A stretch of DNA of 64,000 nucleotides from a bacterium (lineage in GTDB: Bacteria; Actinomycetota; Acidimicrobiia; Spongiisociales; UBA5794): NCBI GenBank assembly GCA_024228555.1, contig JAAETI010000377.1:36379-100378 (forward strand). Reading direction: 5' to 3'. A model generated the notes under the pieces. That model was given only the letters and a program-made list of their open reading frames with translations. It searched no databases and had not been told where the DNA came from. The translations under genes were made by a program, and so were the position numbers. Below, piece by piece: positions 17,230-36,632 of this stretch (positions are counted from its first letter, which is position 1; every line of letters starts with the position of its first letter).

Positions 17230-19152
17230 ATGGTTGCTCGGCTTCATCTTCTCCTGTTCATATCGTTGCTGCTTGTCGGTTCTCTTGCCGCTCCCGCGGT
17301 CGCCGAGCTGGGACCGGGAGGTTCGTTCGTTGACGATGACGGGAACGTGCACGAGGGGTTCATCGAAGCAATCGCCGCCGAGGGCATAACCAGGGGCTGC
17401 AATCCGCCCGTCAACGACAAGTACTGTCCGGCCGCGGCAGTGACCCGTGGCGAGATGGCTGCCTTCTTGGTTAGAGCCCTTGCCCTGCCCGTCACTCGTA
17501 CGGACTACTTCAACGATGACAGTTCTTCGGTGTTCCAAGCTGATATCAATGCCCTTGCCGAGGCCGGGATCACCCGCGGCTGCAACCCGCCGAGCAATGA
17601 CCGGTTCTGTCCTGCCGACGCAGTGTCCCGAGGTCAGATGGCCGCCTTTCTGGTCCGGGCGTTCGCCTACACCGATCCGGGTCAAGGGGATTGGTTCACC
17701 GATGACGACGGTTCGGTGTTCGAGGCCGATATCGACAGGCTGCGGCAGGCAGGGGTGACCAACGGCTGCAACCCGCCTGCCAATACGCTCTACTGCCCAA
17801 ACGCCGATGTGCGCCGCGATGAGATGGCCTCATTCCTCGGACGAGTACTCGGGCTGTCGCCCGTATTCCCGCCGGCAGTCGGTGAGTCTTGTGTACGTCC
17901 CGGGACGGGACAAGTGCCGGCTCGGCAGATCACGGTCACTCCCGGCCAGTCCCCGACTCTCGGCGAGGCCTTCGCCGATGCTCGGGCCGGTGACCATATC
18001 CTGCTCGAGTCCGGTACTCACCTCCAGACCGGCAATCTTGTCATCAATCGCTCCGGTACTGCGGCTAGTTGGATTCAGATCAAGGCTGCGCCCGGGGCCG
18101 ATCCGATCATCGACCTCAACAGCTCCGGGGAGTTTCGGGTCAGCGGTTCGTATGTCTCACTGCAGGATGTCGACATCCGCAACGGTGGTGGCAACAACCT
18201 CCACATCGCCCCCGATACGACTGACGTCCACCACATTCATGTCGCCGACACGGTCATCCACGACCTCGCCTGGGGACCGGGTGCCGCGATCAAGATCAAT
18301 CGGAACAACCCGGCAGGAGCTGCCGTCGGCACGATCTGTCTGGAGAACAACGATGTCAGCGAGGCTCTCTCCAATGCGACTATCGACGGAGTTGGCGTCG
18401 ACGGTGCTGTGGTCATTGGCAACGACATTCACGACAACGCCGTTGGGAGTCATGGGATCTTCTTCAAGGGTGGTTCCGCCGACATCCTGATCGAAGGCAA
18501 CGTGATCAGAGGTATCCGCGGCAACGCCGCTCTACAGCTTGGCGGAAGCACGGGGGCGTCGTTTTGGAATCCGCTCTACCCGGCGTGGGAAGGTGTCGAC
18601 CAGGTCGCCAGGAACAACGTCATTGCTGACTTTGACGACTCCGCCGTAGAGATCCGGGGTGTCGATGGCGCGGTGGTCTACAACAACACGATTGTCACTC
18701 AGAGCAACTTCGCCATCTTTCGGCTCCAGGTTGGCGACAACGCATCCGGTGGTTCGAGCGGCAACGGTGATGTCCATATCAGCAGCAATCTGGTGATCGG
18801 CACTGGCGGTGATCCGCAGTATGCCCGCAACGATGGAGGTAGCGCTGCGGTGGTGTTTGGACCGCAGCTCTGGGCGGGGACCTTTCACAACTCGGGTGCG
18901 GCGACTCCGGGCATCCCCACGTTCCCCCAGGCGGGTGATGTTGTGGTTGGCGCAGGCGCTCTCGGTACCGTTGTGACCAACCCGACGGTGACGGGTCTCA
19001 CCGGTATTGCCGATGCGGTCGTGCGCTACACACCCATCGCAGGCGGACCGGCGCAGGGAGCGGCGGAGGTGCTTGAAGGGGTGGTCGCCGACATGCTTGG
19101 TGCAACCCGGTCAATCTCGGCACCGACGATGGGTGCAATCGAAGACGCTTGA
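17230..19152 (+). CDS. Secreted cell-surface protein: three SLH-like repeats followed by a right-handed parallel beta-helix (pectate-lyase-fold) domain
   Basis: Signal peptide MVARLHLLLFISLLLVGSLAAPAVA. Three ~55-aa repeats F.DD...V....I..L...GIT.GCNPP.ND..CP...V.RG.MAAFLVRA. Beta-helix repeats follow (NNDVS..., GNDIHDN, GNVIRG, NNVIAD, NNTIV). Start set at ATG 17230. Confidence 0.6.
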   Translation: MVARLHLLLFISLLLVGSLAAPAVAELGPGGSFVDDDGNVHEGFIEAIAAEGITRGCNPPVNDKYCPAAAVTRGEMAAFLVRALALPVTRTDYFNDDSSSVFQADINALAEAGITRGCNPPSNDRFCPADAVSRGQMAAFLVRAFAYTDPGQGDWFTDDDGSVFEADIDRLRQAGVTNGCNPPANTLYCPNADVRRDEMASFLGRVLGLSPVFPPAVGESCVRPGTGQVPARQITVTPGQSPTLGEAFADARAGDHILLESGTHLQTGNLVINRSGTAASWIQIKAAPGADPIIDLNSSGEFRVSGSYVSLQDVDIRNGGGNNLHIAPDTTDVHHIHVADTVIHDLAWGPGAAIKINRNNPAGAAVGTICLENNDVSEALSNATIDGVGVDGAVVIGNDIHDNAVGSHGIFFKGGSADILIEGNVIRGIRGNAALQLGGSTGASFWNPLYPAWEGVDQVARNNVIADFDDSAVEIRGVDGAVVYNNTIVTQSNFAIFRLQVGDNASGGSSGNGDVHISSNLVIGTGGDPQYARNDGGSAAVVFGPQLWAGTFHNSGAATPGIPTFPQAGDVVVGAGALGTVVTNPTVTGLTGIADAVVRYTPIAGGPAQGAAEVLEGVVADMLGATRSISAPTMGAIEDA

Positions 19153-19171: not shown

Positions 19172-19990
19172 ATGACCGGACCCCCAATCACACGCCGCCG
19201 ATTTCTCGCAGCTTTTTTTGCGGCGATCGGAGCCGGCGTTGCCGGTGCCACGGTGTGGCTGACGCGGTCCGATGGTGGGACGGCGATGGGCACGACAACA
19301 ACAATCCCACCTCCTGCGACCACGGTGCCGTCGGCGACCACGTCAACCGCGGCCCCAACCACCACGACCTCACCTGCTGTCACGACCACATCACCTGCCG
19401 TGCAACTCATCGACATCGTGTGTCGCGACTCCTGGGGTGCCGTCCCCGCCAGCGGCGATTACACCCCGCACACCATCGATCAGATCACCGTCCATCACAC
19501 CGCGGTGGTGCTCGGCGCAAACTCGGATGCTCCGGGACGGGCCCGCCAGCACCAGCAGTACCACCAGAGCCTCGACTGGCCCGATCTTGCCTACCACTAC
19601 CTCATCGATGCCAACGGACACGTCTACGAGGGGAGACCGGTTGCCTACGTCGGCGACACGGCAACCGACTACGACCCGACCGGTCACTTTCTAGTGTGTT
19701 GCGAGGGCAATTTCAACGAGCAGGAAGTCACCGCGGCGCAGTACGCCAGCTTGGTGAAGCTCGTGGCGTGGGGAGCCATCGAGTTTGAGGTGGACCCTGC
19801 CGTCATTGGGGCGCACCGGGATCTCGCAACGACCACCTGTCCGGGAGACAATCTGTATCCGTTGGTTGCCGAAGGGATTCTGGCCGGCGACGTTGCTGTG
19901 TCGATCACAAATCACGAATTGGGCCTGAACGTGGTGTGCGGGTCGGCGGGGAACGAGTTGATTGCAGCCATCGAAGACGGTTCTGCGTAG
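19172..19990 (+). CDS. Tat-secreted N-acetylmuramoyl-L-alanine amidase (PGRP / Amidase_2 domain)
   Basis: Twin-arginine motif TRRRFLAAFF, a Thr/Pro-rich linker, and Amidase_2 motifs (ITVHHTA, AYHYLIDANGHVYEGR, TTCPGDNLY). Confidence 0.7.
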   Translation: MTGPPITRRRFLAAFFAAIGAGVAGATVWLTRSDGGTAMGTTTTIPPPATTVPSATTSTAAPTTTTSPAVTTTSPAVQLIDIVCRDSWGAVPASGDYTPHTIDQITVHHTAVVLGANSDAPGRARQHQQYHQSLDWPDLAYHYLIDANGHVYEGRPVAYVGDTATDYDPTGHFLVCCEGNFNEQEVTAAQYASLVKLVAWGAIEFEVDPAVIGAHRDLATTTCPGDNLYPLVAEGILAGDVAVSITNHELGLNVVCGSAGNELIAAIEDGSA

Positions 19991-20114: not shown

Positions 20115-21269
20115 GTGGTGAAGCGGGTTTATGTGATGCTGGGGGTTTTGGGGCTCGTCCTAGGAGCTTGTGGGGGCACGAGTACAGACACGACGGTTGC
20201 GGCGACCGCACAGGACAGCCAAGACACCGCGGTCACGACGTCCACAGCAGCCGGCGATAGCAGCGGAGTTGACCTCGGCGAGGATGGCGAGCTCACCCTC
20301 GAGGACTTTATCCCGGGTTTCAACACTGACTTCGAAGAGATCGATTGGCGTGCTCAGGAGTTGGAGATTCAGCAAGCGGTCTCCGTTTGCATGGCAGCCG
20401 AAGGCTTCGAATATGTTCCATTTGTCCCCTCAGATGTCGGTGGCGGGTTCATCGAGGAGGAGTGGGACGAAGAGACGTACGTCAAGGAGTACGGGTTCGG
20501 TGTCGCCAGCTGGATAACCGACGAGAGAAACTTCGGCATCAGCGAAGAAGGTGACGACTTCGAAGACCCCTACGCCAATGATCCAAACCAGGCGATCGTC
20601 GAAGCGATGGACGAGTCTGAGCGTGAGGAATACTTCCGGGTCCTTCACGGCAGCGAGCCGGACATCATCGAGGAGACGCCCTGGGAAGAGATCGAAGCAA
20701 TGACCCAGGAGGAGCAAGAGGCATTCTGGGATGAGGCGTACGCCGATTGGGAACCAGACGGTTGTTTCAACGAGGCCTACGACGTCGCGTACAGCCAGGA
20801 ATCAGCCGAGGCCTTCTATGAGGAATTCAGCGACGATCTAGATGCTATCTACGAGCAAGTTGAGTCCGACCTGCGCATCATGGCGGCTCAGGCCGAGTGG
20901 TCGAGCTGCATGGCCGACAAGGGCCACACCTATGCCACCCAGGAAGAGATGTATGAGTACTTCTGGGGGGACGAGTTCGACGAGAGCGAGTTCTCCAAGC
21001 AGGTGAACGAGTTGATCACCTGGCCCGAGTACGACCCAACAGTCGAACTCACCGAGGAAGAGGAGAACGACCCTTCCCTGTGGATGCCGCAGTACGACAT
21101 CGAGCTACTGCAGCCGTACATCGACGAGGAGATCGCCGTAGCTACCGCTAACTATGAGTGCTCCGAGGACTCGTTCGAACTGTGGGAAGAGGTCTACAAC
21201 GATTTGCAGCAGGACTTCCTCGACGAGAACATGGATCGATTGCTCGCTTTCCTCGAGGCTAACTCATAG
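20115..21269 (+). CDS. Highly acidic, Trp/Tyr/Phe-rich lipoprotein (hypothetical)
   Basis: Signal and lipobox LVLGACGG. Body is >30% D+E with recurring aromatic-acidic patterns (FWDEAYADWEP, YEYFWGDEFDESEF, FELWEEVYNDL). Confidence 0.5.
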   Translation: MVKRVYVMLGVLGLVLGACGGTSTDTTVAATAQDSQDTAVTTSTAAGDSSGVDLGEDGELTLEDFIPGFNTDFEEIDWRAQELEIQQAVSVCMAAEGFEYVPFVPSDVGGGFIEEEWDEETYVKEYGFGVASWITDERNFGISEEGDDFEDPYANDPNQAIVEAMDESEREEYFRVLHGSEPDIIEETPWEEIEAMTQEEQEAFWDEAYADWEPDGCFNEAYDVAYSQESAEAFYEEFSDDLDAIYEQVESDLRIMAAQAEWSSCMADKGHTYATQEEMYEYFWGDEFDESEFSKQVNELITWPEYDPTVELTEEEENDPSLWMPQYDIELLQPYIDEEIAVATANYECSEDSFELWEEVYNDLQQDFLDENMDRLLAFLEANS

Positions 21270-21304
21270 GAACGAGAGCTGATCTTTAGTACAGAGGTGA
21301 GATC

Positions 21305-22864
21305 TTGAGCCGTCGGATACTTCTCGTCGTCACCCTGATTGCCGTCGTCGTGGCCGCAGCCGTGGGTTGGGTCGCAGGTACCCGAATCAAGTCCCCCGAG
21401 CAGGTTGCCGCCGAAGCCGAACCCCCCGAACCGTCGCTGATCTCGGTACCTGTGGTGAGCATGGTCATCGCCAACGACGTCGTAACCAGGGGTACGGTCC
21501 GGTTCGACGAGCCGGAAGCTGTATTCACCCCGACGCTTGCGGTCCCAGAGCTGTCCCCTGTTGTGACATGGGTACCTTCCGTTGGAGAGGAACTCGAGGA
21601 AGGTTCCGTTCTCTTCGAGCTGGCCGGCCGGCCCACCTTCGCCCTGCGCGGTGAGCTTCCGCTGTTCCGTACGGTGACCCCAGGGGACAAAGGCGAGGAC
21701 ATCGCACAGCTACAGACTGCGCTTACCCGTCTCGGCTTCGATCCCGGCATAGTCGACGGCGTCTACGGGCCCGATACCGAGGGTGCGGTTCGTGCGTTCT
21801 ATCAGTCAAACGGTTATCAGCCGATCGGCACCGACCCCGCATTGCTCGACCAGGTCGAAGCCGCAGAGGCGACGGTCGACGGTGCTCGCGACATCTACAA
21901 CGAGGCCAACACGCAACGTGCCGCGGCCGAAAAGGCGCAGCGTGCAGTGACTGCGGCGGCGGCAGACCTGGCAAAAGCAGAAGACGAGCTCGAGTTGGCG
22001 CAGACGAGGCTGGCCGAGGCGGAAGCGGGTACGCACCCCGACACCGGTTCGGCTCCGACCGAGGCTGAGATGACGCAGCTGCAGAGTGCAGTCATCGCAG
22101 GAGAGGATTGGGTTTCGGGGAGCGAGGCGATGTTGCAGACCGCCCTTGGTGCAGCCGATGCCGCGGGTCCTCCTCGTGACATCAGTGGTGAGCGCAGAGC
22201 ACTCGACGCAGCGTTGGCAGATCTGGCCGAGGCAAGATCCCTGGTTGGGTCCCCGGTACCAGACGGTGAGTTCCTGTTCTTCAAGGTCTTCCCGATCAGG
22301 ATCGATGCCGTCTTGTCGCAGCGTGGCGACCTTGCAAGCGGCGAGCTGATGCAGGTGTCGGGCTCCCGGCTTGCCATCGACTCATCCGTTGGTATCGAGG
22401 AGGCGGACTTCATTGAGGAGGGCGACACCGTTCTCATCGAGCTGACTCGGCTGGGTATCGAGCTCAATGGGACGGTTTCAGTGAAGGCTGGTCGGCCGGG
22501 AACCAATGGTGTTGACATCGACGAGGTCTATCTGGAGATACTGCCCGACGAGGTCCGTGCCGATCTCAACAACACCAACGTCAAGCTCACGATCCCCGTA
22601 GCTACTCGAGCGACAGAAGGCGATGTGCTTGCAGTCCCGGCCGCGGCGCTGTCGGCGACCGGATCCGGCGACACCATCGTCACCGTCGAGATGGCAGATG
22701 GGACGATCCGCGTCGTGACAGTGCTCCCAGGTCTATCCGCACCGGGTGGCATGGTTGAGGTGACCGCGATCGACGGTGACCTCGCCGAGGGCGATCGAGT
22801 TGTGATTGGGCTGCAGCAGGGAACAAGGTCCGAGAGCGCGGCCGACGAGTCGGAAGAAGAATGA
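21305..22864 (+). CDS. Membrane-fusion (HlyD/MacA-like periplasmic adaptor) protein with an inserted peptidoglycan-binding (PG_binding_1) domain
   Basis: N-terminal TM, then GDKGEDIAQLQTALTRLGFDPGIVDGVYGPDTEGAVRAFYQSNG (PGBD), a coiled-coil region, and a beta-barrel C-terminus. 4-bp overlap with the downstream ABC ATPase. Confidence 0.65.
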   Translation: MSRRILLVVTLIAVVVAAAVGWVAGTRIKSPEQVAAEAEPPEPSLISVPVVSMVIANDVVTRGTVRFDEPEAVFTPTLAVPELSPVVTWVPSVGEELEEGSVLFELAGRPTFALRGELPLFRTVTPGDKGEDIAQLQTALTRLGFDPGIVDGVYGPDTEGAVRAFYQSNGYQPIGTDPALLDQVEAAEATVDGARDIYNEANTQRAAAEKAQRAVTAAAADLAKAEDELELAQTRLAEAEAGTHPDTGSAPTEAEMTQLQSAVIAGEDWVSGSEAMLQTALGAADAAGPPRDISGERRALDAALADLAEARSLVGSPVPDGEFLFFKVFPIRIDAVLSQRGDLASGELMQVSGSRLAIDSSVGIEEADFIEEGDTVLIELTRLGIELNGTVSVKAGRPGTNGVDIDEVYLEILPDEVRADLNNTNVKLTIPVATRATEGDVLAVPAAALSATGSGDTIVTVEMADGTIRVVTVLPGLSAPGGMVEVTAIDGDLAEGDRVVIGLQQGTRSESAADESEEE

Positions 22865-23541
22865 GCGCGGTTGTCGAGCTTGCCGGGGTGGGCCGCACTT
22901 TCGCAGGCTCCCCGCCTGTGGAGGCCGTCAGGGATGCCGACCTTGTTGTTGAAGAGGGTGGCTACGTGGCCATCGTCGGTCCCTCCGGTTCGGGTAAGTC
23001 CACGCTGCTTCACATCCTTGGATGTCTCGATACGCCAACGTCTGGGTCATATCGCCTGCGCGGCATCGATGTCGGGGGGCTCAGTGACGGTGATAGGACG
23101 TCGCTGCGTGGTGCAGAGGTGGGCTTTGTCTTCCAAGCGTTTCATCTGCTGCCTTACCGGTCGGTGATCGAGAATGTGATGACAGGCCTCGTGTACAACC
23201 GGACCCCGCGCCGGGTGCGCCGGGAGCGGTCGCGCCAGGCTCTCGAGCGTGTTGGTCTTAGTCATCGCCTCGATTTCACACCACGGCAGCTGTCGGGCGG
23301 CGAGCGGCAGCGTGTTGCTGTGGCCCGGGCCATTGCTGCGCAACCAAGCTTGCTGCTCTGCGACGAACCGACTGGGAATCTCGACACCAGGACAACGTCG
23401 GCAATTCTGGATCTCTTCGATGAACTACGCACAGACGGTCTCACTCTGATGGTGATTACCCATGAGGAACGGGTGAGTCAGCGAGCCGAGAGGCGAATCG
23501 AGATGATCGATGGCTTTCTCGGCGAGGCGGAGTCTTCATGA
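22861..23541 (+). CDS. ABC transporter ATP-binding protein (MacB/LolD/FtsE type)
   Basis: Walker [10 protein letters not shown], signature LSGGERQRVAVARA, Walker B LLLCDEPTGNLD. Confidence 0.9.
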   Translation: MSAVVELAGVGRTFAGSPPVEAVRDADLVVEEGGYVAIVGPSGSGKSTLLHILGCLDTPTSGSYRLRGIDVGGLSDGDRTSLRGAEVGFVFQAFHLLPYRSVIENVMTGLVYNRTPRRVRRERSRQALERVGLSHRLDFTPRQLSGGERQRVAVARAIAAQPSLLLCDEPTGNLDTRTTSAILDLFDELRTDGLTLMVITHEERVSQRAERRIEMIDGFLGEAESS

Positions 23542-24791
23542 GTGCCGTGCAACCTCTCGAGCACAGGATCGTGAAGTCACGCTTTGCACTGAGCGACCTC
23601 GTAGCCGAGGCCTTCTCCGGCATGCTCGCCAGACCAGGTCGCACGATGCTCACCATCCTGGGAACGGTTCTTGGCGTGGTTGCCGTGGTAGCCACATTGG
23701 GCATTGCCAAGACCTCAGGTAATCAGATTGTCAGCCGCACCGATGAGCTGTCTGCGACCTCGGTTTCCGTTTCCAACCGCAGCGAAGGAGGGTTTCGCTC
23801 GCCGAGCAACAATGTCTCGTCGATTCCCTGGGACGCCGAGGATCGGCTGACCAGACTCAACGGCGTTGTGGCTGCCGGAACCATGACGCGGGTCGACACG
23901 TCCGGGTCGCTCGTCAGCTCCGTTCCCATCAACGATCCGTTGGGACAGAGCGAATTCGCCATCGATGTTGTCGCAACCTCGCCGGGTCTCTTCGAAGCAG
24001 TTCTCAGCGAGCTGTCTACCGGGCGCTATTTTGACGAAGGGCACAGCATCCGCAACGAGCCGGTTGCGGTGATCGGTTCTGGTGCTGCCACACGACTCAA
24101 CGTGACGCGGGTCGACCAGCAACCTGCCATCTTTGTGGGGGACACGACTCTTGTTGTTATCGGCATCCTTGACGACGTGGCCCGCGAGCCCTCACTTATC
24201 AATAGCGTCATCATCCCCAACGGCACCGCCAACGCTCTGTTCGGGACGGGGGCCCCGGCAGAGGTCCATATTCTCACCGAGCTGGGAGCAGCGCAGCTCA
24301 TCGGCGACCAAGCGGCCGTCGCTCTGTCTCCGAACGAGCCAGAGACACTTCGAGTGTCCGTTCCTCCAGAACCTCGCATTCTGAAGTCTGGACTTCAGGA
24401 CGACGTGAATTCTCAGTTCCTCATTCTCGGTGGGATTTCGTTGCTGGTAGGTGCGATCGGTATCGCCAACGTGACGCTGGTCTCGGTGCTGGAGAGAGTC
24501 GGTGAGATCGGGCTGCGGAGGGCAACAGGGGCGCGGCGGCGTCACATCGCGGCCCAGTTTCTTGCGGAGTCGGCGGCGATGGGATTGGTTGGCGGGATCA
24601 TCGGAGCAAGTCTCGGGGTGCTGGTGATCGTTGCGGTCTCTGCACAACGGCAATGGACTCCGGTTCTTGACCTATATGTGCCACTTCTTGCAGTGCCGGG
24701 CGGCGCCGTGATCGGACTGATCGCGGGGCTCTATCCTTCATGGCGGGCCAGCTCGTTGGAGCCGGTCGATGCACTGCGCGGGGGGACCTAA
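23538..24791 (+). CDS. FtsX-like ABC transporter permease (MacB-type, with large periplasmic domain)
   Basis: N-terminal TM, a ~250-aa extracytoplasmic domain, and a C-terminal 3-TM FtsX region (LILGGISLLVGAIGIANV...). Confidence 0.8.
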   Translation: MSAVQPLEHRIVKSRFALSDLVAEAFSGMLARPGRTMLTILGTVLGVVAVVATLGIAKTSGNQIVSRTDELSATSVSVSNRSEGGFRSPSNNVSSIPWDAEDRLTRLNGVVAAGTMTRVDTSGSLVSSVPINDPLGQSEFAIDVVATSPGLFEAVLSELSTGRYFDEGHSIRNEPVAVIGSGAATRLNVTRVDQQPAIFVGDTTLVVIGILDDVAREPSLINSVIIPNGTANALFGTGAPAEVHILTELGAAQLIGDQAAVALSPNEPETLRVSVPPEPRILKSGLQDDVNSQFLILGGISLLVGAIGIANVTLVSVLERVGEIGLRRATGARRRHIAAQFLAESAAMGLVGGIIGASLGVLVIVAVSAQRQWTPVLDLYVPLLAVPGGAVIGLIAGLYPSWRASSLEPVDALRGGT

Positions 24792-24926
24792 ATCAAATGC
24801 TGTTGTCAGCCGATAAAGTAGTTGTGCCAACTGTCGGAGACAGCATCAACCAAGGGGCATCAAGTGGATTCCTACGATGAGTTCGGCTCGGTGAGACCGG
24901 TCTCCGGTCAGGGTGAGAAGTCCTAC

Positions 24927-26555
24927 ATGGACCCGATCCAGGCAACAGCCGGCGGTCCCCGCAAGGCGCTCGTCGGTGGCCTAGTCCTGGCAGTTCTGAT
25001 TGTTGCTGCGGTAGCGGCGACAGTTGTGTGGAGAGGTCGCACCGGTGACCCATTCGCCTCCGCCCGCTCTGTCCCTGCAGAGATAGATTTCGTGATGACA
25101 TTCGATGCGCTGGCACTCAGCGATAGTGAGCGCCTGCAGGCATTCGTGGATGCCTTCGCAGTTCCTATGCTTGATGCGGAGCTAATCGATAGCTACCCCG
25201 GCGATCTGGTCGCTGCCATCGATGAGACGATGGCCGAGGAGACCGGATTCACGCTCACCGACGACATCGTCCCCTGGATTGGACGATCGGTCTCAATTGC
25301 AGGGAAGGTGCCTGAGCTCGACTTCGAATACGGCTCCGGCGTTGAGATCTCCTTCATTCTGAGTGCCGACGTACGCGACCGTGCTGCCGCCGAAGCCTTC
25401 GTCGACAAGGTCGTTCGCAGGCTTGGCGACGAGCAGGTCACCGTTACCGCATCCGAGATCGCAGGCCAGCCTGGCTATCTGTTCACCCAGCCTGACGCTG
25501 AGCCGGAGATTGCACTGGTGTTGCTGGACGATGCGTTGCTCGTCGGGACCGATGACAGCGTCGCCGGTGCTATTGCCGCCAGAGACGCGGGTCTTTCGAT
25601 CGCCGAGGATGCCGGATTCGTCGAGGTGATGTCGCGGCTCCCCGAAGAACGCATGGTGGCGTATTACGTGGCGCCGAGTGCGATGAACGCGTTGCTCGAC
25701 CTCAGCGCCGCCGTGAGCGCCGCTGGCTTTGCAGGCGAAATTCCGGAGCTGCCAGAAACTCCAGAGGCCACCCCAATGGCCGCCGCGGTAAGTCTCGTGG
25801 ATGAGGGCGTGCTGTTCAGCTATGTGTCGCTTGGGACAATCGATGTCGGCGATGTCCTGGCTCCCGACAATGCGGTGCTGGGGAGCCTGCCTGACAGCAC
25901 GCTTGGGTTCCTGTCGATAGCGGGCTCGTTTGGCTCAGAGGGAATGTCACTCGATGAGCAGATGATGTCCGACCTGGGCTACCCGCTCGGCATGCTTTCC
26001 CAGGAGACCGGCATCGATATGGTCGCGGTTCTCGAGTCGCTGTCTGGCGGTCTGACAATCGCAGTCAACGAAACGAGAAGCAGCTCGATTGCCGCGGCAA
26101 CAGACGTGCCTGTCGGTGTACTGGCTGCGGTCGACCTCAACGATTCGGAGCCCATTAGCGGACTCCTGGACATGCTGGAGGAGATGGCCGGCCAACAGGG
26201 TGTCGAACTCAGCGACGATGCTGGCGTGACCACCATTTCCGTAGATGGGGATGAGTACGCCGCCTACTCGCTGGCCGATGACCTCCTGGTGATCGGAAGC
26301 GGATCAGACCTCGTACGGGACGTTGCTTCCAACGAGTCTGGGGGATTGCTCAGCTCGCAGCTCTATGTCGAGCTCGACGCGGGTGTTGCCGGTGACGGGT
26401 TAGTGATGTTTGTGGACATCGATGGGATCGTTTCCCTCGTGCCGTTGACTTCCGATGAGGCTGCGGTGATTGCACCAATCCGCGGTATGGGTGTCGGCGG
26501 CGAGGTCGACGGCGACGCCGTGACCATGGAAGTCCTGCTGCTAGTCGACTACTAG
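24927..26555 (+). CDS. Membrane-anchored hypothetical protein (DUF3352-like, from memory; low certainty)
   Basis: Single N-terminal TM (LVGGLVLAVLIVAAVAATVVW) and a large acidic extracytoplasmic domain. ATG at 24927 has a GGTGAG SD-like sequence; 24822 is the alternative start. Confidence 0.45.
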   Translation: MDPIQATAGGPRKALVGGLVLAVLIVAAVAATVVWRGRTGDPFASARSVPAEIDFVMTFDALALSDSERLQAFVDAFAVPMLDAELIDSYPGDLVAAIDETMAEETGFTLTDDIVPWIGRSVSIAGKVPELDFEYGSGVEISFILSADVRDRAAAEAFVDKVVRRLGDEQVTVTASEIAGQPGYLFTQPDAEPEIALVLLDDALLVGTDDSVAGAIAARDAGLSIAEDAGFVEVMSRLPEERMVAYYVAPSAMNALLDLSAAVSAAGFAGEIPELPETPEATPMAAAVSLVDEGVLFSYVSLGTIDVGDVLAPDNAVLGSLPDSTLGFLSIAGSFGSEGMSLDEQMMSDLGYPLGMLSQETGIDMVAVLESLSGGLTIAVNETRSSSIAAATDVPVGVLAAVDLNDSEPISGLLDMLEEMAGQQGVELSDDAGVTTISVDGDEYAAYSLADDLLVIGSGSDLVRDVASNESGGLLSSQLYVELDAGVAGDGLVMFVDIDGIVSLVPLTSDEAAVIAPIRGMGVGGEVDGDAVTMEVLLLVDY

Positions 26556-27868: not shown

Positions 27869-29124
27869 GACTGAGCAACATCGCGACGGAAGTGGATTCC
27901 GCCGAAGTGGATATGTGAGGCGGCTTCGTAGGCGAGAGCTCTGGCCTCGGGCACGGTCTGACCTGTGGCGACAATGTTGAGAACCCGGCCCCCAGCAGTG
28001 ATCAAGCCGTCAGGTGTCCGTTTCGTGTTGGCATGGAACACCTGCACGTTGGGAATGGAATTGACCTCGTTGACGCCGCTGATTGCCCTGCCTACCTCCG
28101 GGTTGTCGGGATAGCCCGCGGCCGTCAGCACAACATCGACAGCCGCCCGGTCGTACCACTGCAGTGGACCGTCGGGCATGTATCCCTCTGCCGCTGATAC
28201 CAAGAGCTCGAGCAGATCCTCGTTCAGCCGGGAAAGCAACACCTGGGTTTCCGGATCACCGAGTCGACAGTTGAACTCGAGGACCTTGGGGCCTTCGTCG
28301 GTCAGCACCAGACCGGCGTATAGGAACCCTCGGTATTCAATGCCGTCTTCGGCGAGGGTTGCCAGCACCGGGTCGATCACCTGTGTGATGGTGCGATCGA
28401 CCAAGTCGTCGGGGAGATCCGTAACGGGGGAGTAGCACCCCATGCCGCCGGTGTTTGGTCCACGGCCGCCATCGAGATGCCGCTTGTAGTCGCGAGCCGG
28501 CTCGAGGGCTACGGCACGGGTTCCGTCGCAGATGGCAAATACCGAGACTTCTTGCCCGGCGAGGTGGTCTTCGATCACAACGGTGGAGCCAGCTTCGCCA
28601 AACTCGCCGCTGATGCAGAGTCGGGCCCAACCCTGTGCGGCAATGAGGTCCTCGGTAACAAGCACACCCTTGCCGTAAGCCAGTCCGTCGGCCTTCACAA
28701 CATATGGCGGCTTCACGGTTTCCAGATAATCGATGGCTTCATCGACATCGGTGAACGCTCGTGAGTTAGCCGTAGGTACCCCGGCGCGTCGCATGATTTC
28801 CTTGGCAAAGGCCTTCGAGGATTCAAGGCGTGCACCGGTCTTGGTCGGCCCATAGGCGCGAACGCCTGCCTCAGTAAGCGCATCGACGACGCCTGCCGCC
28901 AGTGGTGCCTCCGGTCCGATGACAACGAGGTCAATGGCGTTGGCCAGCGCAAGGTCGACGATTGCTTCCGTGTCCTTGATATCGATACCTGGGATGCATG
29001 CGCCCAGCTGGGCGAACCCGGGGTTGCCTGGGACTGCGATGAGGTCGGTGATGGTGTGGCTTTGCGCGAGCTTCCAGCCAAGGGCGTGTTCCCGGCCACC
29101 CCCGCCGACGAGTAGGACCCTCAT
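27865..29124 (-). CDS. purD: Phosphoribosylamine--glycine ligase
   Basis: MRVLLVGGGGREHALGWKL; ATP-grasp motifs; 4-bp overlaps with both neighbours. Confidence 0.9.
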   Translation of the reverse strand: MRVLLVGGGGREHALGWKLAQSHTITDLIAVPGNPGFAQLGACIPGIDIKDTEAIVDLALANAIDLVVIGPEAPLAAGVVDALTEAGVRAYGPTKTGARLESSKAFAKEIMRRAGVPTANSRAFTDVDEAIDYLETVKPPYVVKADGLAYGKGVLVTEDLIAAQGWARLCISGEFGEAGSTVVIEDHLAGQEVSVFAICDGTRAVALEPARDYKRHLDGGRGPNTGGMGCYSPVTDLPDDLVDRTITQVIDPVLATLAEDGIEYRGFLYAGLVLTDEGPKVLEFNCRLGDPETQVLLSRLNEDLLELLVSAAEGYMPDGPLQWYDRAAVDVVLTAAGYPDNPEVGRAISGVNEVNSIPNVQVFHANTKRTPDGLITAGGRVLNIVATGQTVPEARALAYEAASHIHFGGIHFRRDVAQS

Positions 29125-30398
29125 GTGGTCCGCATCACAGTCGCATCGCGAGCCGGTCCCACTCCGATCATCGATATTGGAATGCCGATTGTGTCCTCCA
29201 CGTACTCAATGTAGTGCTGCGCTTCCTTGGGCAGGTCTGAGAACTTGCGAACGTTCGAGATGTCGGTGTTCCACCCGGGGAGTTCTTCGTAGACGGGGCG
29301 GCAGTTGTAGAGAACCCGTTGTTGGCGCGGGAACTCTGTGTACCGGTCGCCGAGAGAGTCGTAGCCAACCGCAACCCTCAGGTTCTCGAAGTGGGAGAGG
29401 ATGTCGAGCTTGGTCATCGCGAGTTCGGTGAGACCGTTGACCCGCACTGCATATCTGAGAGCCACGAGGTCCAGCCAGCCGCAACGGCGTCGCCGCCCAG
29501 TGACAGTCCCGAACTCTCCACCGATATCAACCATCTTGGCGCCAATGTCATCAAAGAGCTCCGTGGGGAAGGGACCGGTACCGACCCTGGTGATGTAGGC
29601 CTTGGCGACGCCGACGATCCGATCGATCGTGGTGGGTCCGACCCCGCTTCCGGTCGTCGCCCCACCCGCGGTTGGGTTGGAGGAAGTCACAAACGGATAC
29701 GTCCCGTGATCGATATCCAGAAGCGTGCCCTGGGCGCCTTCGAAGATGATGTTCTTGCCTGCCTGTTGGGCTTCCCACAGCAGTAGCGAGGTGTCGGTCA
29801 CGTAGTCCCCGATACTGTCGGCATAACCGAGGTATTCGTCGGCAATTGGCTCAATGTCCATGGGCAAGGAGTTGTAGACCTTGGTGAGGATCTTGTTCTT
29901 GTCCTTGAGAGCGACCTCGAGCTTCTGACGGAAGATCTTCGGATCGAACAGGTCTTGAACCCGAATCCCGTGTCTAGAGAACTTGTCCATGTAGGCGGGA
30001 CCGATGCCACGCTTGGTGGTTCCGATCTGCTGCTGGCCCAAGAACCGCTCCATTACCGCATCCAGTTTGCGGTGATAGGGCATGATCAGGTGGGCGTTGG
30101 CGGAGATCTTGAGGCGCGTCGGGTCGATGTTGCGATCCGCCAGCTCGGCCATCTCCGTAACGAGGACCGAGGGATCGATCACGCATCCGTTTCCGATGAC
30201 AGGGGTCACTTGCGGGTACAGCACACCGCTTGGGATCAGGGTCAGAGCGAAGCGTTCGGTGCCAACGATGATGGTGTGACCAGCGTTGTTGCCACCCTGG
30301 TAGCGCACTACGACGTCGGCCGACTCGGAGAGGTGATCGGTCACCTTCCCCTTGCCCTCGTCGCCCCATTGGGCCCCAATTAGAACGGTTGTAGGCAC
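29121..30398 (-). CDS. purA: Adenylosuccinate synthetase
   Basis: GGAGGG SD 5 nt before GTG at 30398. N-terminus VPTTVLIGAQWGDEGKGK is canonical. The ORF-track extension to 30671 is rejected. Confidence 0.9.
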   Translation of the reverse strand: MPTTVLIGAQWGDEGKGKVTDHLSESADVVVRYQGGNNAGHTIIVGTERFALTLIPSGVLYPQVTPVIGNGCVIDPSVLVTEMAELADRNIDPTRLKISANAHLIMPYHRKLDAVMERFLGQQQIGTTKRGIGPAYMDKFSRHGIRVQDLFDPKIFRQKLEVALKDKNKILTKVYNSLPMDIEPIADEYLGYADSIGDYVTDTSLLLWEAQQAGKNIIFEGAQGTLLDIDHGTYPFVTSSNPTAGGATTGSGVGPTTIDRIVGVAKAYITRVGTGPFPTELFDDIGAKMVDIGGEFGTVTGRRRRCGWLDLVALRYAVRVNGLTELAMTKLDILSHFENLRVAVGYDSLGDRYTEFPRQQRVLYNCRPVYEELPGWNTDISNVRKFSDLPKEAQHYIEYVEDTIGIPISMIGVGPARDATVMRTT

Positions 30399-30531
30399 AG
30401 GATCCCTCCAAAAGCTGTGGTGACCGGTCGGGCGGATTGTACCGGGACTCCTGCCAAAGAATGCGGTGGCTTCTACTCGCCGCGGGTCATCGACAAAATG
30501 ACGGCGGCGGTAGGCGATACAATCGAAAACG

Positions 30532-31137
30532 ATGCCGAAGATCAATGCCGCGACGATCAACGAACACAAAGAGCAAACACGGACCGCGTTGCTTGATGCC
30601 GGGGCCGCGGCTTTTGTTCGATCCGGGCTGGCGGAAACATCGATCGGAACGCTTGCCGATGATGCCGGCATCGCAAGGACGACGGTTTATGAGTACTTCC
30701 CGAACAAGGAAGCGGTGCTAGCTGCCCTAATCGAGGAGCGGGTACCTCCGGTTGTAGAACGCGCGATCAGCGACCTGCCCGAGGTCGGGCCCGCAGAGCG
30801 TCTTTCCGAGATCCTGCGCCGCGGATTCCAGCTCGTTGCTGAGTTCCCCGTCGAAGCGATGCTGATGTTTCGGGTGAGTCGTGAGCTACCGAAGCCTGAA
30901 CGTGACCAATCTTGGTCTGTTTTTGACGTAATCCGTGAGGAAATGATGAGCCTTTGTGCCGCAGGCATCGCCAGGGGCGTATTTGCGGCCATGGATCCGA
31001 CCACCTTGGGAACCATCGTTGCTGATCACTTCGTTGGAGGTATTGACGAACTAGCGGCTAGAACCGATGAGGATGCAGAAGACATCATCGAGACGAGAAT
31101 CAGCTTTCTGTACCACGGGCTCGGCCCAGCGGACTAG
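30532..31137 (+). CDS. TetR/AcrR-family transcriptional regulator
   Basis: HTH region TSIGTLADDAGIARTTVYEYFPNKEAVL. Confidence 0.8.
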   Translation: MPKINAATINEHKEQTRTALLDAGAAAFVRSGLAETSIGTLADDAGIARTTVYEYFPNKEAVLAALIEERVPPVVERAISDLPEVGPAERLSEILRRGFQLVAEFPVEAMLMFRVSRELPKPERDQSWSVFDVIREEMMSLCAAGIARGVFAAMDPTTLGTIVADHFVGGIDELAARTDEDAEDIIETRISFLYHGLGPAD

Positions 31138-31739: not shown

Positions 31740-31895
31740 CTCGCAAACTCCTGTGGACAGCCGTCCGAGATTCGTCTTCTCATGGGTTTTATTGTCAGGA
31801 ACTGGTGGCGCGCTTTGGATCGCCCGGCTACATTCGCAGCACGCACTCACCCGAGTGCGCTTCGCAAACACGAAACTAGAGGGAGGGAAATCCTC

Positions 31896-33023
31896 ATGAT
31901 CAAACGATTGATGCTGCTCCTTGCAGTGCTCGCGCTTGTGGCTGCGGCGTGTGGCGGTACTTCAGATACCGAAGAGACCACGACGACGGCGGCCACGGAC
32001 GACGGAACAACCGAAACTACAGCGGGATCCACAGACGATGGTGGTGGCGACGCCGGACAAGGATCTGAGGGTGGCACCCTCGCAACTGTCCAAGCTCGCG
32101 GCAAGCTCATCTGTGGCGTCAGCGGCTCTGCCGTTGCATTCTCGGAGACACAGTCTGATGGCAGCGCCACCGGCTTTGATGCCGACTACTGCCGGGCAGT
32201 AGCGGCAGCCGTTCTTGGCGATGCCAATGCAGTCGAGTTCAGGGCCTTGACGGCCGCAGAACGCTTCGAAGCGCTCAAGAACAACGAAATCGACGTGCTG
32301 ATTCGTAACACCACATGGACCCAAAGCCGTGACACGGACATCGGTATGGACTTCGCTCCGACCACGTTCTACGACGGCCAGCAGGTCATGGGACGGCGTG
32401 ACAAGGGCTTCACCGAGGACTCAACGTTGGCTGATGTCGATGGCGCCATCTTGTGCACCAACGCAGGAACCACAACCGAGAAGAACATCACCGAGGGTGC
32501 AGCACTCTCTGGTGCAACCATCACTCTGGAAACGGTAGAGACCTTCCCAGAGGCAATGGAGAAGTTCATCGCAGGTACGTGTGACCTGACGACAACCGAC
32601 GGTTCCGGCCTGGTTGGTAACAAGGCGACACAGGACACGAACGACGAGTGGGTCATCTTCCCACGTGCACCGATCTCCAAAGAGCCGTTGGGTCCGGTTT
32701 ACCGGCAGAACGACTCCCAGTGGGGCGACATCATCAACTGGACCGTCTATGCAACCATCATCGCTGATGAGAATGACGTGACCTCAGCTAACGCTAGCCA
32801 GGACGATGAGCGTCCAGAGATCAGCCGTCTGTTCGGCGGAGAGGGCGAACTGCAGACCAAGATGGGTCTCGAGGCAGATGCTTTCTTCCAGGTAATCACC
32901 CAGGTTGGCAACTACGACGAGATCTTCTCCCGCAACTTGAACCCCGTTGGGTTGTTCCGTGAAGGAACGTTCAACGCACCGTTCAACGAGGGTGGCATGA
33001 TCTTCGCACCGCCGGCTCGCTAG
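31896..33023 (+). CDS. General L-amino-acid ABC transporter substrate-binding lipoprotein (AapJ-like)
   Basis: GAGGGAGGG SD before ATG at 31896. Lipobox LVAAACGG and a Thr/Gly/Asp-rich linker. PBP family-3 fold. Confidence 0.8.
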   Translation: MIKRLMLLLAVLALVAAACGGTSDTEETTTTAATDDGTTETTAGSTDDGGGDAGQGSEGGTLATVQARGKLICGVSGSAVAFSETQSDGSATGFDADYCRAVAAAVLGDANAVEFRALTAAERFEALKNNEIDVLIRNTTWTQSRDTDIGMDFAPTTFYDGQQVMGRRDKGFTEDSTLADVDGAILCTNAGTTTEKNITEGAALSGATITLETVETFPEAMEKFIAGTCDLTTTDGSGLVGNKATQDTNDEWVIFPRAPISKEPLGPVYRQNDSQWGDIINWTVYATIIADENDVTSANASQDDERPEISRLFGGEGELQTKMGLEADAFFQVITQVGNYDEIFSRNLNPVGLFREGTFNAPFNEGGMIFAPPAR

Positions 33024-33046
33024 AGAATCAAGCTCAGTAGCTTGAG

Positions 33047-33076
33047 AAGGGGCGCCTCCGGGCGCCCCTTCTTTTT
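33047..33076 (+). terminator. Rho-independent terminator after the binding-protein gene
   Basis: AAGGGGCGCC-TCCG-GGCGCCCCTT is a perfect 10-bp stem, followed by CTTTTT. Confidence 0.75.
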
Positions 33077-33157
33077 GTGCTCGAAGAGCCCAGCTGGAGG
33101 GGGCCGAGATCACTTCCAGTGGCGCGGCGACCTTCGCCGTGGCTAGGGTCCTTTGCG

Positions 33158-34744
33158 ATGGAGAGGGAGAACAAGGCCCCTGACGCTGCGGGCGATTCGG
33201 CTGTTTCGACTCGTGTGCACGCCAGGCCGCCTATCTGGCGCAACATATCGGTAATCAAGTGGGTAGCTCAGCTTGCCGCGCTTGTTGCGGTATTGGCCCT
33301 GTTCTGGCTTCTCGGCAGCGAAGCAGCGAAGAACTTCTCCGCGAGCGGTATCTCGTTTGGATGGGACTGGTTGTCAGACCCGTTCGGGGTGAACATCCGC
33401 GAAGGAATTGACGTCAACCCTGACAGCGGTGCCCGTGCTCTCGTGGTTGGTGCCGTCAACACGTTGCGAGTCGCAATATCTGGGATCTTCGCCGCAACCA
33501 TCCTCGGCACCGTCGTCGGCGTCGCCCGGCTCTCGCGCAACTGGATTGTGAACAGGCTCGCCACCGTCTACATCGAGATCATCCGCAACATCCCGCTTCT
33601 CGTCCAGATTTTCTTCTGGTCCGCCTTGACCATCGGGTTGTCGGATCTGGTGGAAGATGACGTAGGAACACATCTGTTCAAGGCCTCCAACAAGGGCTTC
33701 GGTCTCGCCTGGCTGTTCCCCTCGACCGGGTTCTGGCCGTGGCTGCTCATCGTCATCGTTGGCTTGGTCGCTGCCAAGTTCGTCGCCGCTTGGCGGACCC
33801 GGCTCATGGAGGAGACAGGGAAGGAGGCCTACTCGCTGACGTACGCGTTCGGTACGGTCGCCTTGTTTGGCCTCGTTGGCTGGTTCATCCACCCGATTCT
33901 TGGGTTCCTGTCTGGTGTGTGGGACGCCATCGGCGACTTCATCGGAGGGCTTCCATCATCCACGGTTTCGGTTGTTATCGCCGCCGCCGGACTCTTGGGA
34001 GCTGCCTGGTGGATACGCCAGTTCTTCGAAAGCAGAAGGACGCCCGCCGGCTTTGGCAAGATGACCGACGACGACATCTTCCGAATCGTATTCGCCGGTC
34101 TCGTTGGGTTGGGCGTAGCACTTGTCGGCTTTGCGCTGGGCGGAGCCTCGATAGAGACACCGGGGGGCGATGTGCTCACGGTCGCCGAACTCATCCGCAA
34201 TGGCTTCTCGAATGGGTTCCACTGGTTTGCGGACAAGTTCACCGGCGATTCCGGAGGACCTATATCGTTCTCGCAAGCCAATGTTGAGGTTCGTGGCGCT
34301 GGGTTCACCCAGTTTGGCACGGATGGAATCATCATCACTCCACCCTTCTTCGCCGTGTGGGTCGGGGTCACGCTGTATACCGCCGCCTTTATCGCTGAGA
34401 TCGTCCGCGGCGGCATTCTTGCGGTTTCCAAGGGTCAGACTGAAGCAGCCCAGGCAGTCGGGCTCAAACGATCGCAGTATTTGCGGCTCATCATCCTGCC
34501 GCAGGCGTTCCGCATCATCCTCCCTCCAATGGGGAATCAGTACCTGAACCTCGCCAAGAACACATCACTGGGTCTTGCCGTGGCTTTTGCCGACATCGTG
34601 GCGGTCGGGTTTACAGCTATCAACCAAACCGGCCAGTCATTGCCGGTGGTGCTCGTCTGGATGGCGTTCTTCGTGACGATGAGCCTGATCATTTCCGGCA
34701 TCGTCAACTACTACAACCGCAAACTGAAGCTCGTGGAGCGATGA
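33158..34744 (+). CDS. Amino-acid ABC transporter permease (AapQ-like, enlarged)
   Basis: C-terminal conserved permease core with EAA loop ([29 protein letters not shown]) and an extended multi-TM N-terminal half. Confidence 0.8.
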   Translation: MERENKAPDAAGDSAVSTRVHARPPIWRNISVIKWVAQLAALVAVLALFWLLGSEAAKNFSASGISFGWDWLSDPFGVNIREGIDVNPDSGARALVVGAVNTLRVAISGIFAATILGTVVGVARLSRNWIVNRLATVYIEIIRNIPLLVQIFFWSALTIGLSDLVEDDVGTHLFKASNKGFGLAWLFPSTGFWPWLLIVIVGLVAAKFVAAWRTRLMEETGKEAYSLTYAFGTVALFGLVGWFIHPILGFLSGVWDAIGDFIGGLPSSTVSVVIAAAGLLGAAWWIRQFFESRRTPAGFGKMTDDDIFRIVFAGLVGLGVALVGFALGGASIETPGGDVLTVAELIRNGFSNGFHWFADKFTGDSGGPISFSQANVEVRGAGFTQFGTDGIIITPPFFAVWVGVTLYTAAFIAEIVRGGILAVSKGQTEAAQAVGLKRSQYLRLIILPQAFRIILPPMGNQYLNLAKNTSLGLAVAFADIVAVGFTAINQTGQSLPVVLVWMAFFVTMSLIISGIVNYYNRKLKLVER

Positions 34745-34745
34745 G

Positions 34746-36632
34746 ATGACATCGAATATCGTCACCGACAATGTGAGCGAGCTGGCCCCCGAGCCACCGC
34801 CGCACGGTCCCGTTGTCTGGGCCAGGACGAACCTGTTCTACTCCGCGTTCAGCACCATCCTGACGGTCGTGTTCGGAGCCATCGGTCTACTGGCCGCCAA
34901 AGGGTTGCTCGCCTTCATGTTCGACCCAGAGCGCCGATGGGATGCCGTAACCAAGAACATGCGGCTGCTGATGACTCAGGCCTATCCGGCCGGAGAGAAC
35001 CTCACGCTGACCGATGCTATGGGCGAGCCAATCAACCAGTTCCATCGGATCTGGATAACCGTCGGCATCGTTGCTTTCCTGCTAGCAGTGACCTTTGCTG
35101 TGTTCCGAATTGGCGGCAAGATCGCTCCGCGCTCATTGGGTCGAATCCTCGAAGGGATAGGGGCGGCTGCAATCGGGGTGGCAATCCTCGGGCCATTCGA
35201 CACGACAGCTCGCATCATCTGGCTGGTCTTCGGAGGTGTGGTTGCCGCGGTGGGCTACTACCTGGCCAACCAGCTTGGAGAACGCGGCAAGGAGGAGTTC
35301 ATACCGGCGGTCTCGCTCATCGCTGTTGGACTCGGTCTCATCGTTGCCCTGGCTTGGATGCTGCAATTGCCTTTCCCTGTCAAGGTCGATGCCGATACCG
35401 CAACCGACCTAACGCCTACCGCCCCCGGCCAGTTCATTGAGTATCAGGACATTGCGACGAGCACCTTGGTGCCTTGGACCCTGATATTCATCGGGATCAT
35501 TCTCTTCTACCTGCTGGGCATGGCAATCCGGGATCGTGGGCCCCATGAGGGTGGCGTCATCCGCAACGTCCTGGTAGGGATGTGGATCGCCGCCTTCCCG
35601 TTCCTCGTGCTGGTTGTTCTGCGCGATCCGGCGATCAACTACGACAAGGTTTGGCCGTGGTACATCGGGTTGGCTCTGGCGTTCATTGTTGTCGGAGGCT
35701 TCCTGCTCAACTATCTGGCCAGCAAGGCCGCCGGTGAGGCTGGGCGCGCCATCGCCGCGCTGCTGGTGGTAGTGGCCATCGGTAGCTTCTTTGTGTCAAC
35801 TGAGTACATCGTGAGATTCCTGCTCATGTCGCTAGCGCTGTTTGCGTTGGCTGCTCCGACGTTCGGTGGAGAGGGGTCGTCGCGCACGAGATTCCTCTTG
35901 GCGTGGGCTTCATTTGTCGTGATCTTGGTGTACACCATCACCTTGACGACCACCGAGTCGACGGTTGAGGTACCGGGCAACTTCTTCATCGGAGGCCTCT
36001 TCCTAACGTTCATCATCGCCATCACCGCTGTCGTCGCCTCGTTCCCGATCGGCGTGGTTTTGGCCCTGGCGAGAACTTCGACCATGCCGATCTTCCGGCT
36101 CATGGCGACGGCATACATCGAATTGGTGCGAGGCGTGCCGCTGATCACCTGGCTGTTGGTTGCTTTCCTGATGTTGCCCGTAGCCCTCCCCGAAGGTGTC
36201 GAGCTTGGTGGCGTCGTGCGGGCCATCATCATGATTGCGTTCTTCTCGGCGGCCTATTTGGCTGAGAACGTCCGTGGTGGTCTCCAGGCCATTGCCAAGG
36301 GGCAGTACGAGGCCGCACAAGCACTTGGCCTGTCAACGGTGCAGATGACAGTATTCATCACGCTGCCGCAGGCACTCCGTGCTGTCATCCCGGCTTTGGT
36401 CGGTCAGATCATCGCTCTCTTCAAGGACACCTCGCTGGTGACCATCGTGGGTCTGTTCGACATTCTCCATATCGCCCGTCAGGTGATCCCTGCGCAGACG
36501 CAGCCACTCAATTTCCTTGGATCAATCAAAGAGACGCTGATCTTCACGGCCGTCGTCTACTGGATATTCACTTTCACTTTCTCCCGGATCAGCCTGAGGC
36601 TCGAGAAGAGACTCGGCGTGGGTGAGCGCTAA
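34746..36632 (+). CDS. Amino-acid ABC transporter permease (AapM-like, enlarged)
   Basis: EAA loop [30 protein letters not shown]. About 400 aa of extra N-terminal TM helices. Confidence 0.8.

Follow-up and report, generated by a model that had tools for sequence, protein, structure and literature searches.

Introduction

Among MacAB-like transporters of Gram-positive bacteria, YknXYZ with its accessory membrane protein YknW, AS-48EFGH and Spr0693-0695 protect against peptides from the outer face of the membrane (PMC5985334). Their adaptors, among which YknX binds peptidoglycan, have been proposed to form channels across the inner-wall zone, and the role of an adaptor in pumps of this kind, which function without an outer membrane, is regarded as an open question (PMC5985334). 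The cargos known for MacAB systems are at most ~10 kDa in size; another member of the MacB superfamily, LolCDE, extracts lipoproteins (PMC5985334). Here we describe a related four-gene cassette, encoding a lipoprotein, a membrane-fusion protein (MFP; periplasmic adaptor), an ATP-binding cassette (ABC) ATPase and a MacB-type permease, identified in the genome of a bacterium of the class Acidimicrobiia (lineage UBA5794). The 64,000-nucleotide stretch analysed (hereafter the window) corresponds to positions 36,379 to 100,378 of the forward strand of contig JAAETI010000377.1 (assembly GCA_024228555.1).

In our best reading, the closest relatives of the machine encoded by this cassette are YknWXYZ and Spr0693-0695. 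YknWXYZ of Bacillus, a system protecting against the SDP peptide, shares with it a separate ATPase, a MacB-type permease with four transmembrane (TM) segments, a membrane-anchored MFP, the lack of an outer membrane, a fourth co-transcribed accessory protein and a peptidoglycan (PG)-binding adaptor (PMC5985334; in the present case predicted from the PG_binding_1 domain). However, YknW is a polytopic membrane protein while that of the cassette is a lipoprotein (their sequence relation was judged only through negative Pfam and PDB searches), and YknX lacks a dedicated PG_binding_1 domain. The Spr0693-0694-0695 system of Streptococcus pneumoniae, involved in the response to LL-37 and bacitracin, has the same adaptor/ATPase/permease layout, and the structure of its adaptor (5xu0) fits the model of ours (E 4e-10), but it has neither a lipoprotein partner nor a PG_binding_1 insertion, and the hairpin helices of the cassette adaptor are ~60 residues long each.

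By analogy with these pumps, we propose with moderate confidence that the cassette encodes an actinobacterial, outer-membrane-independent MacAB-like (type VII ABC) extrusion machine, which would be anchored in the wall and equipped with a non-enzymatic lipoprotein as its fourth subunit. Its ABC core and adaptor are of known kinds; the systematic insertion of PG_binding_1 and the dedicated lipoprotein are new features. In the literature searched, we found no description of the cassette or of the lipoprotein family, which agrees with the original prediction for this DNA, made from the nucleotide sequence and its translations, in which the combination could not be matched to a described system. 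With regard to the question of the adaptor's role, the cassette represents a naturally occurring variant: its adaptor has a defined PG-binding domain and always comes with a dedicated lipoprotein.

Conservation of the four-gene unit

The original prediction assumed a unit of five co-directional genes at positions 20115-26555. All five open reading frames (ORFs) are indeed present on the forward strand and encode proteins of the types described, with the corresponding domains, lipobox and TM segments recognized in them: the lipoprotein (gene 1, 20115..21269; 384 aa), the MFP (gene 2, 21305..22864; 519 aa), the ABC ATPase (gene 3, 22861..23541), the permease (gene 4, 23538..24791; 417 aa) and a single-TM protein of the DUF3352 family (gene 5, 24822..26555). 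The lipoprotein and MFP genes are separated by a gap of 35 nt, and at both the MFP/ATPase and the ATPase/permease junctions the stop codon of one gene and the start codon of the next share a 4-nt overlap; the ATPase, a subunit of its own, is translationally coupled.

A scan with the lipoprotein profile, covering one genome per species, revealed 327 stretches with relatives. Eighty of these loci were compared and, together with three metagenome contigs, they form the set of 83 related loci, whose six-frame ORFs were scored against the window proteins. In 71 of the 83 loci the MFP gene is immediately preceded by the lipoprotein gene, and all four cassette genes were found in 66, the rest being mostly truncated contigs. 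All-against-all clustering of the neighbouring genes distinguished only the four cassette genes as general neighbours (present in 83, 75, 73 and 69 loci) and none further. The order lipoprotein-MFP-ATPase-permease is retained from metagenome-assembled genomes (MAGs) of Acidimicrobiia, which include the closest relatives of the window, to cultured Cellulomonas, Pengzhenrongella, Phytoactinopolyspora, Microbacterium, Leucobacter and Actinomyces and a MAG of Nakamurella, as well as in distant MAGs.

In two loci the order is permuted. One of them is L013; in the other (L086, 6001-10095) a short adaptor (374 aa), the ATPase and the permease precede the lipoprotein (recognized by hhalign with probability 100%, E 4e-67). 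Since the lipoprotein gene still adjoins the others, its linkage survives rearrangement. The L086 cassette itself adjoins a wall-growth cluster encoding FhaA/FhaB, a PP2C phosphatase, RodA/FtsW, a penicillin-binding protein and a PASTA kinase (fhaAB-pstP-rodA-pbpA-pknB). Judging from this synteny, the conserved unit is a predicted four-gene operon of lipoprotein, adaptor, ATPase and permease, and a functional tie of the lipoprotein to the transporter, as originally suspected, is supported. The five-gene unit was rejected: neither the DUF3352 gene nor the amidase gene located upstream of the cassette is syntenic beyond close relatives, and DUF3352 adjoins the cassette in only four of the 83 loci (L002, L006, L007 and L008), being missing even in the close relatives L004, L005 and L009.

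Apart from two cases, all relatives of the cassette originate from Actinomycetota. The nearest one in the genome collection (lipoprotein 77% identity) belongs to a MAG labelled Gemmatimonadales (contigs L004 and L039), and another (L022) is labelled Acidobacteriota; these contigs have probably been mis-binned.

The ABC core

The ATPase (ABC_tran) gives its best NCBIfam matches with LolD (210.5 bits), MacB (203.7 bits) and FtsE (190 bits), all well above other ABC classes and below the equivalog cut-offs, and on these scores it is assigned to the MacB/LolD/FtsE clade only, with no equivalog name. The permease contains two Pfam domains, the extracytoplasmic MacB_PCD (60.9 bits, cut-off 27), placed by Pfam at residues 36-235, and FtsX (64.8 bits, cut-off 25.5) at residues 296-409, comprising TM2-4. 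Its four hydrophobic segments (residues 33-61, 290-321, 345-371 and 376-401) correspond to the topology of MacB. Both features typical of the MacB (type VII ABC) superfamily, i.e. a four-TM permease with the core domain placed between TM1 and TM2 and an ATPase of the appropriate clade, are thus present, and the type VII assignment made originally is upheld.

Narrower assignments were not obtained. With the MacB equivalog model (NF007826, cut-off 966 bits) the ATPase and the permease score 203.7 and 86 bits, respectively; in MacAB-TolC of E. coli, which shares with the cassette the MacB_PCD and FtsX permease domains, the MacB ATPase is fused to the permease. Transporters of the BceAB type lack an adaptor and have a ten-TM permease whose large domain is placed between TM7 and TM8, as opposed to the four TM segments in 417 aa and the adaptor found here.

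The adaptor and its peptidoglycan-binding domain

Within the product of gene 2 Pfam detects solely a PG_binding_1 domain (PF01471; residues 130-172, nucleotides 21692..21820; 42.7 bits versus a cut-off of 23, E 6.6e-11), and its identity as an adaptor was therefore checked by profile and structure comparisons. The protein has one N-terminal TM segment (residues 3-27). A profile of 30 MFP homologues searched against PDB matched the CzcB-like adaptor ZneB (E 1.9e-5), and also the PG-binding domains of SleB and of phage endolysins (gp144). The AlphaFold2 (AF2) model (pLDDT 85.8) shows, in order, a TM helix, a beta (lipoyl) segment, the PG_binding_1 helices (131-142 and 156-168), an alpha-hairpin of two unusually long helices (178-240 and 253-312) and three beta-rich domains at the C-terminus (lipoyl, barrel and membrane-proximal). 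When this model was compared with PDB using Foldseek, it matched AcrA, MacA (5nik_D, 9qgy_G and 4dk0), MexA, ZneB, EmrA and Spr0693 (5xu0) with E values of 1e-15 to 1e-10 and probability 1.00. Taken together, the profile match, the predicted fold and the Foldseek matches identify gene 2 as encoding an MFP with a PG-binding domain at the junction of the lipoyl domain and the hairpin. An operon-encoded MFP composed of membrane-proximal, beta-barrel, lipoyl and alpha-hairpin domains, as is typical of MacAB-type systems, is therefore predicted. It was originally considered that PG_binding_1 is rare in MacA-type adaptors; this is true in relation to the MacA of Gram-negative bacteria, but within the actinobacterial MFP family, including the relatives of the cassette, the domain is the norm.

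In an alignment of 73 adaptors, the loop at the hairpin tip (GTHPDTGSAPT in the window; residues 242-252, nucleotides 22028..22060) is kept as G[TV]HPD[TSG]GxxP[TS] in ~50 adaptors from Acidimicrobiia, but the motif is not conserved in those of Actinomycetes; an alignment query for more distant adaptors returned the same close set. In the structural model the motif forms the coil that joins the two hairpin helices. The hairpin tip of Gram-negative adaptors docks onto TolC. By analogy, the conserved tip suggests a fixed distal partner, of which it would be the putative contact site. In contrast to MacAB-TolC, a TolC-type partner is not expected in a monoderm, and the tip bears a different, lineage-specific motif (GTHPDTGxPPT).

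The lipoprotein family

The lipoprotein possesses a signal peptide with an L-G-A-C lipobox (Cys19), a disordered tether of ~40 residues and an all-alpha domain of two halves. In its AF2 model, a confident one (pLDDT 84, pTM 0.73), no order is predicted for the first 48 residues, as would fit a flexible tether behind the lipid anchor. Throughout the family alignment the lipobox Cys and four further Cys residues (92, 217, 265 and 349) are invariant, and the motifs CMxxEGFEY, YGFG and DPN are evident. The CMxxxGFxY motif occurs in both halves, each of which also has a second conserved Cys (C92/C217 and C265/C349). Aligned with each other by hhalign, the N- and C-terminal halves match with a probability of 75% (E 2.6e-5), pairing C92 with C265 and C217 with C349. 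This indicates that the internal repeats suspected originally stem from an ancient duplication, with one probable disulfide per half (C92-C217 and C265-C349, predicted).

The residues invariant across the family are Cys, Gly, Pro, Tyr, Asn and Glu, and do not form a catalytic-type set; we infer that the protein is a binding or structural subunit. It has no match in Pfam, NCBIfam, PDB sequences or PDB folds, nor was any Pfam match common to 42 family members or to 8 distant ones. A word-indexed search detected 127 clusters of relatives, while an exhaustive profile search of 1.84 billion representatives (50%-identity clusters) retrieved 8025 proteins at E<=1e-3, 4117 at E<=1e-10 and 1297 at E<=1e-30. 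On these profile matches, the lipoprotein belongs to a large family missing from Pfam and NCBIfam. Comprising thousands of 50%-identity clusters with a confidently predicted fold and no solved relative, this family merits definition.

The composition of the window lipoprotein is extreme (D+E 27.1%, K+R 2.9%, W+Y+F 13.0%, pI ~4.05). The acidity emphasized in the original prediction extends to the sampled subfamily (median D+E 25% in the Acidimicrobiia and Actinomycetes of the scan set) but not to the single Streptomyces member measured (D+E 12%, pI 5.15); extreme acidity is a trait of a subfamily, not of the whole family. Acidity therefore offers no argument that the family as a whole binds cations or peptides. 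The concept of the lipoprotein as a 'sponge' for cations or cationic peptides is also weakened by the acidity of other ectodomains of the same organism (MFP, pI 4.15; DUF3352 protein, pI 4.05).

In 13 of the 71 loci with the lipoprotein gene directly upstream of the adaptor gene, a single adaptor/transporter set is preceded by tandem, diverged lipoprotein paralogues, two to three by count and up to four by eye (L003, 8813-11167; L015, L018, L022, L029, L033, L040, L043, L044, L053, L060, L073 and L078). Such tandem copies beside one transporter, as well as the invariable presence of a lipoprotein gene, are what might be expected if the lipoprotein were a cargo, which the MacB-type transporter would pull from the membrane and release via the adaptor to the wall or the medium. 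This resembles the activity of LolCDE (PMC5985334), a system of the same superfamily that likewise involves lipoproteins and has a separate ATPase, LolD, the model of which gives the best NCBIfam match of the cassette ATPase. Nevertheless, the LolD, LolC and lolCE models remain far below their cut-offs (210.5 versus 307.75, 34 versus 473 and 30.5 versus 362 bits, respectively), no LolA/LolB-like gene is conserved near the 83 loci according to neighbour clustering, and the cassette is linked to one dedicated lipoprotein family, not to a general lipoproteome. The adaptor, a component that Lol systems do not use, and the size of the folded mature protein (~38 kDa, with predicted disulfides), far above that of known MacAB cargos (PMC5985334), make the cargo model less likely still, and we consider it distinctly improbable.

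Streptomyces loci and proposed function

A tblastn search against plasmids identified the lipoprotein and the adaptor on linear plasmids of Streptomyces, and the cassette order is kept in five such plasmid loci. In RefSeq these genes are labelled, in order, as encoding a hypothetical protein, a peptidoglycan-binding protein, an ABC transporter ATP-binding protein and an ABC transporter permease. The upstream 'hypothetical protein' proved to be a member of the lipoprotein family in all four cases tested (hhalign probability 99.1%, 98.5% and 96% in three, and tblastn in the fourth, H3). Four of the five loci (L084, L085, L089 and L091) have, in divergent orientation next to the cassette, either one or two genes for SigE-family ECF sigma factors, with a putative anti-sigma gene, or genes of a HAMP histidine kinase and a response regulator. 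These divergent, stress-type regulators point towards an envelope-stress-inducible, protective role. A DUF3152 gene is located just upstream in L084.

The extrusion machine proposed above might operate as follows. By mechanotransmission, in which ATP powers movements of the stalk and core domain of MacB, a substrate located on the outer face of the membrane or in the inner-wall zone would be pushed into the tube of a hexameric adaptor, which the PG_binding_1 domains would pin to the sacculus; the substrate would then be released beyond the wall, and its re-association with the membrane prevented. The lipoprotein, held near the pump by its tether of ~40 residues, would be an obligate fourth subunit that most likely captures or presents the substrate or organises the adaptor, as YknW does for YknXYZ. 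Judging by the Streptomyces regulators, the process would provide inducible protection against a wall- or membrane-acting compound.

Several observations weigh against this interpretation. The window holds no clue to the substrate, and neighbour clustering shows no regulator beside the cassette either in the window or in the majority of the Acidimicrobiia loci, hence the role in inducible defence would be an extrapolation from Streptomyces to Acidimicrobiia. Contact between the lipoprotein and the pump is deduced from gene linkage only, and a few lone lipoprotein genes occur with no transporter nearby (L011, L021, L058 and L072). The structural models are predictions, that of the adaptor having a pTM of just 0.51, and the extreme acidity, which the one Streptomyces member measured does not share, gives no argument for a charge-based function common to the family. 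Hosts of the cassette include the genetically tractable Streptomyces, Cellulomonas and Microbacterium as well as human-associated Actinomyces, which makes the role of the adaptor, its wall anchoring and the fourth subunit accessible to direct tests.

It is also conceivable, though in our opinion unlikely, that the lipoprotein family constitutes a new output module of type VII ABC machines of Actinomycetota. The lipoprotein would then be more than a passive helper: the core domain and the wall-pinned adaptor would act on it mechanically, as FtsEX does on EnvC or LolCDE on its cargo, and ATP hydrolysis would thereby be coupled to an event in the zone of the wall or the S-layer, with the hairpin tip docking to a wall-side partner.

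A different role is suggested by the genes surrounding the cassette in Acidimicrobiia. The wider window represents ordinary chromosome (with purA, purB, purD, clpB, dnaK and an amino-acid ABC importer), and the next cluster after the four cassette genes comprises SLH-domain genes, which in 21 of the 83 loci immediately precede the lipoprotein gene and are separated from it by a tiny gap (e.g. L003, 7417-8799; L046, 8460-9977; L088, 3544-4839). The SLH protein of these clades is unrelated to the lipoprotein; in the lineage of the window, the gene two positions upstream of the lipoprotein gene (17230..19152, forward strand) encodes another SLH protein, which contains a right-handed beta-helix resembling Pel9A. 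This housekeeping context, devoid of regulators, and the SLH association mean that a role in biogenesis has to be considered, in which the machine would export an endogenous constituent of the envelope (for example a glycolipid, a wall polymer or a component that the S-layer needs) and the aromatic-rich lipoprotein would carry it or hand it on, in the manner of DevBCA glycolipid export or of LprG-Rv1410c. In mycobacteria, the lipoprotein LprG, which has a beta-rich lipid-binding fold, and the exporter Rv1410c, of the MFS type, are encoded together and act on envelope components. The actinobacterial operon pairing a dedicated lipoprotein with an exporter is common to that system and the cassette, but the transporter classes differ, and the cassette lipoprotein is all-alpha with no fold match and, in particular, no recognised lipid-binding fold. 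Export of an endogenous component would also be compatible with the strongly conserved hairpin tip, suggestive of a fixed distal partner, and with the wall-growth cluster adjoining one relative. On the other hand, the SLH association is limited to about a third of the loci and is absent in Actinomycetes, and the plasmid-borne Streptomyces copies beside stress-type regulators are a better fit to accessory defence, so that we regard a biogenesis exporter as a rather unlikely alternative to a protective extrusion machine.

Neighbouring genes of the window locus

Directly upstream of the cassette lies a gene for an N-acetylmuramoyl-L-alanine amidase-family protein (Amidase_2; 19172..19990, forward strand) with a twin-arginine (Tat) motif, TRRRFLA; the SLH protein with the beta-helix is encoded upstream of it. 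On the other side, the DUF3352 protein (PF11832; 60.7 bits versus a cut-off of 26.8) has one TM segment, and its gene is likely to start at GTG 24864 (563 aa) or ATG 24927 (542 aa). Both genes are lineage-specific neighbours outside the conserved cassette. The amidase gene adjoins the cassette in five of the 83 loci (L002, L005, L006, L009 and L039), all of the window's own clade. In two loci (L011, 5283-7598; L021, 1-2437) the genes for the amidase and the DUF3352 protein stand immediately side by side, no transporter is present and, at a distance of 2 kb, a lipoprotein gene occurs by itself. Since the same two genes flank the cassette in the window, the cassette looks as if it had been inserted between them (or excised elsewhere), and the amidase and DUF3352 genes may, judging from their arrangement, belong together as a pair. 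In L011, the PKD-domain and cyclase genes next to the lone lipoprotein gene give no hint of a function.

The distribution of the amidase gene bears on the model put forward originally, in which the cassette would be a mechanotransducer similar to FtsEX-EnvC that controls the neighbouring Tat-amidase, with the lipoprotein as a cofactor. FtsEX, acting with EnvC, PcsB or RipC, belongs to the same superfamily and transmits force to an extracytoplasmic partner, and the type VII architecture, the PG-binding domain and the position of the amidase gene within ~125 bp upstream, both in the window and in close relatives, conform with such a function. Synteny with a hydrolase is, however, confined to one clade, and the pairing of the amidase with DUF3352 in L011 and L021 occurs with the transporter absent. 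In addition, the permease carries MacB_PCD, an extracytoplasmic domain of another type than that of FtsX, and scores 22.3 bits with the FtsX_actino model (cut-off 250), an MFP is present, unlike in FtsEX systems, and no coiled-coil/LytM or other hydrolase-activator signature was found in the lipoprotein. Regulation of the amidase was consequently rejected as the main model, and we consider it highly improbable.

Other features of the window

Scans of the region for promoters and terminators and against Rfam gave nothing above background. At positions 31782-36632 the window encodes the amino-acid-type ABC importer, consisting of an SBP_bac_3 protein of 413 aa and two unusually long permeases (555 and 628 aa), in which BPD_transp_1 is confined to the C-terminal third; their N-terminal extensions of ~400 residues have no family match. 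An ORF of 532 aa on the reverse strand (46253-47851) has no Pfam match at E<=1e-5. The adenylosuccinate synthetase ORF, also on the reverse strand (29121-30671; 516 aa), is extended at the N-terminus by ~85 residues in comparison with the 412-aa call in the relative L002, and this extension is probably an artefact of mechanical start-codon choice.

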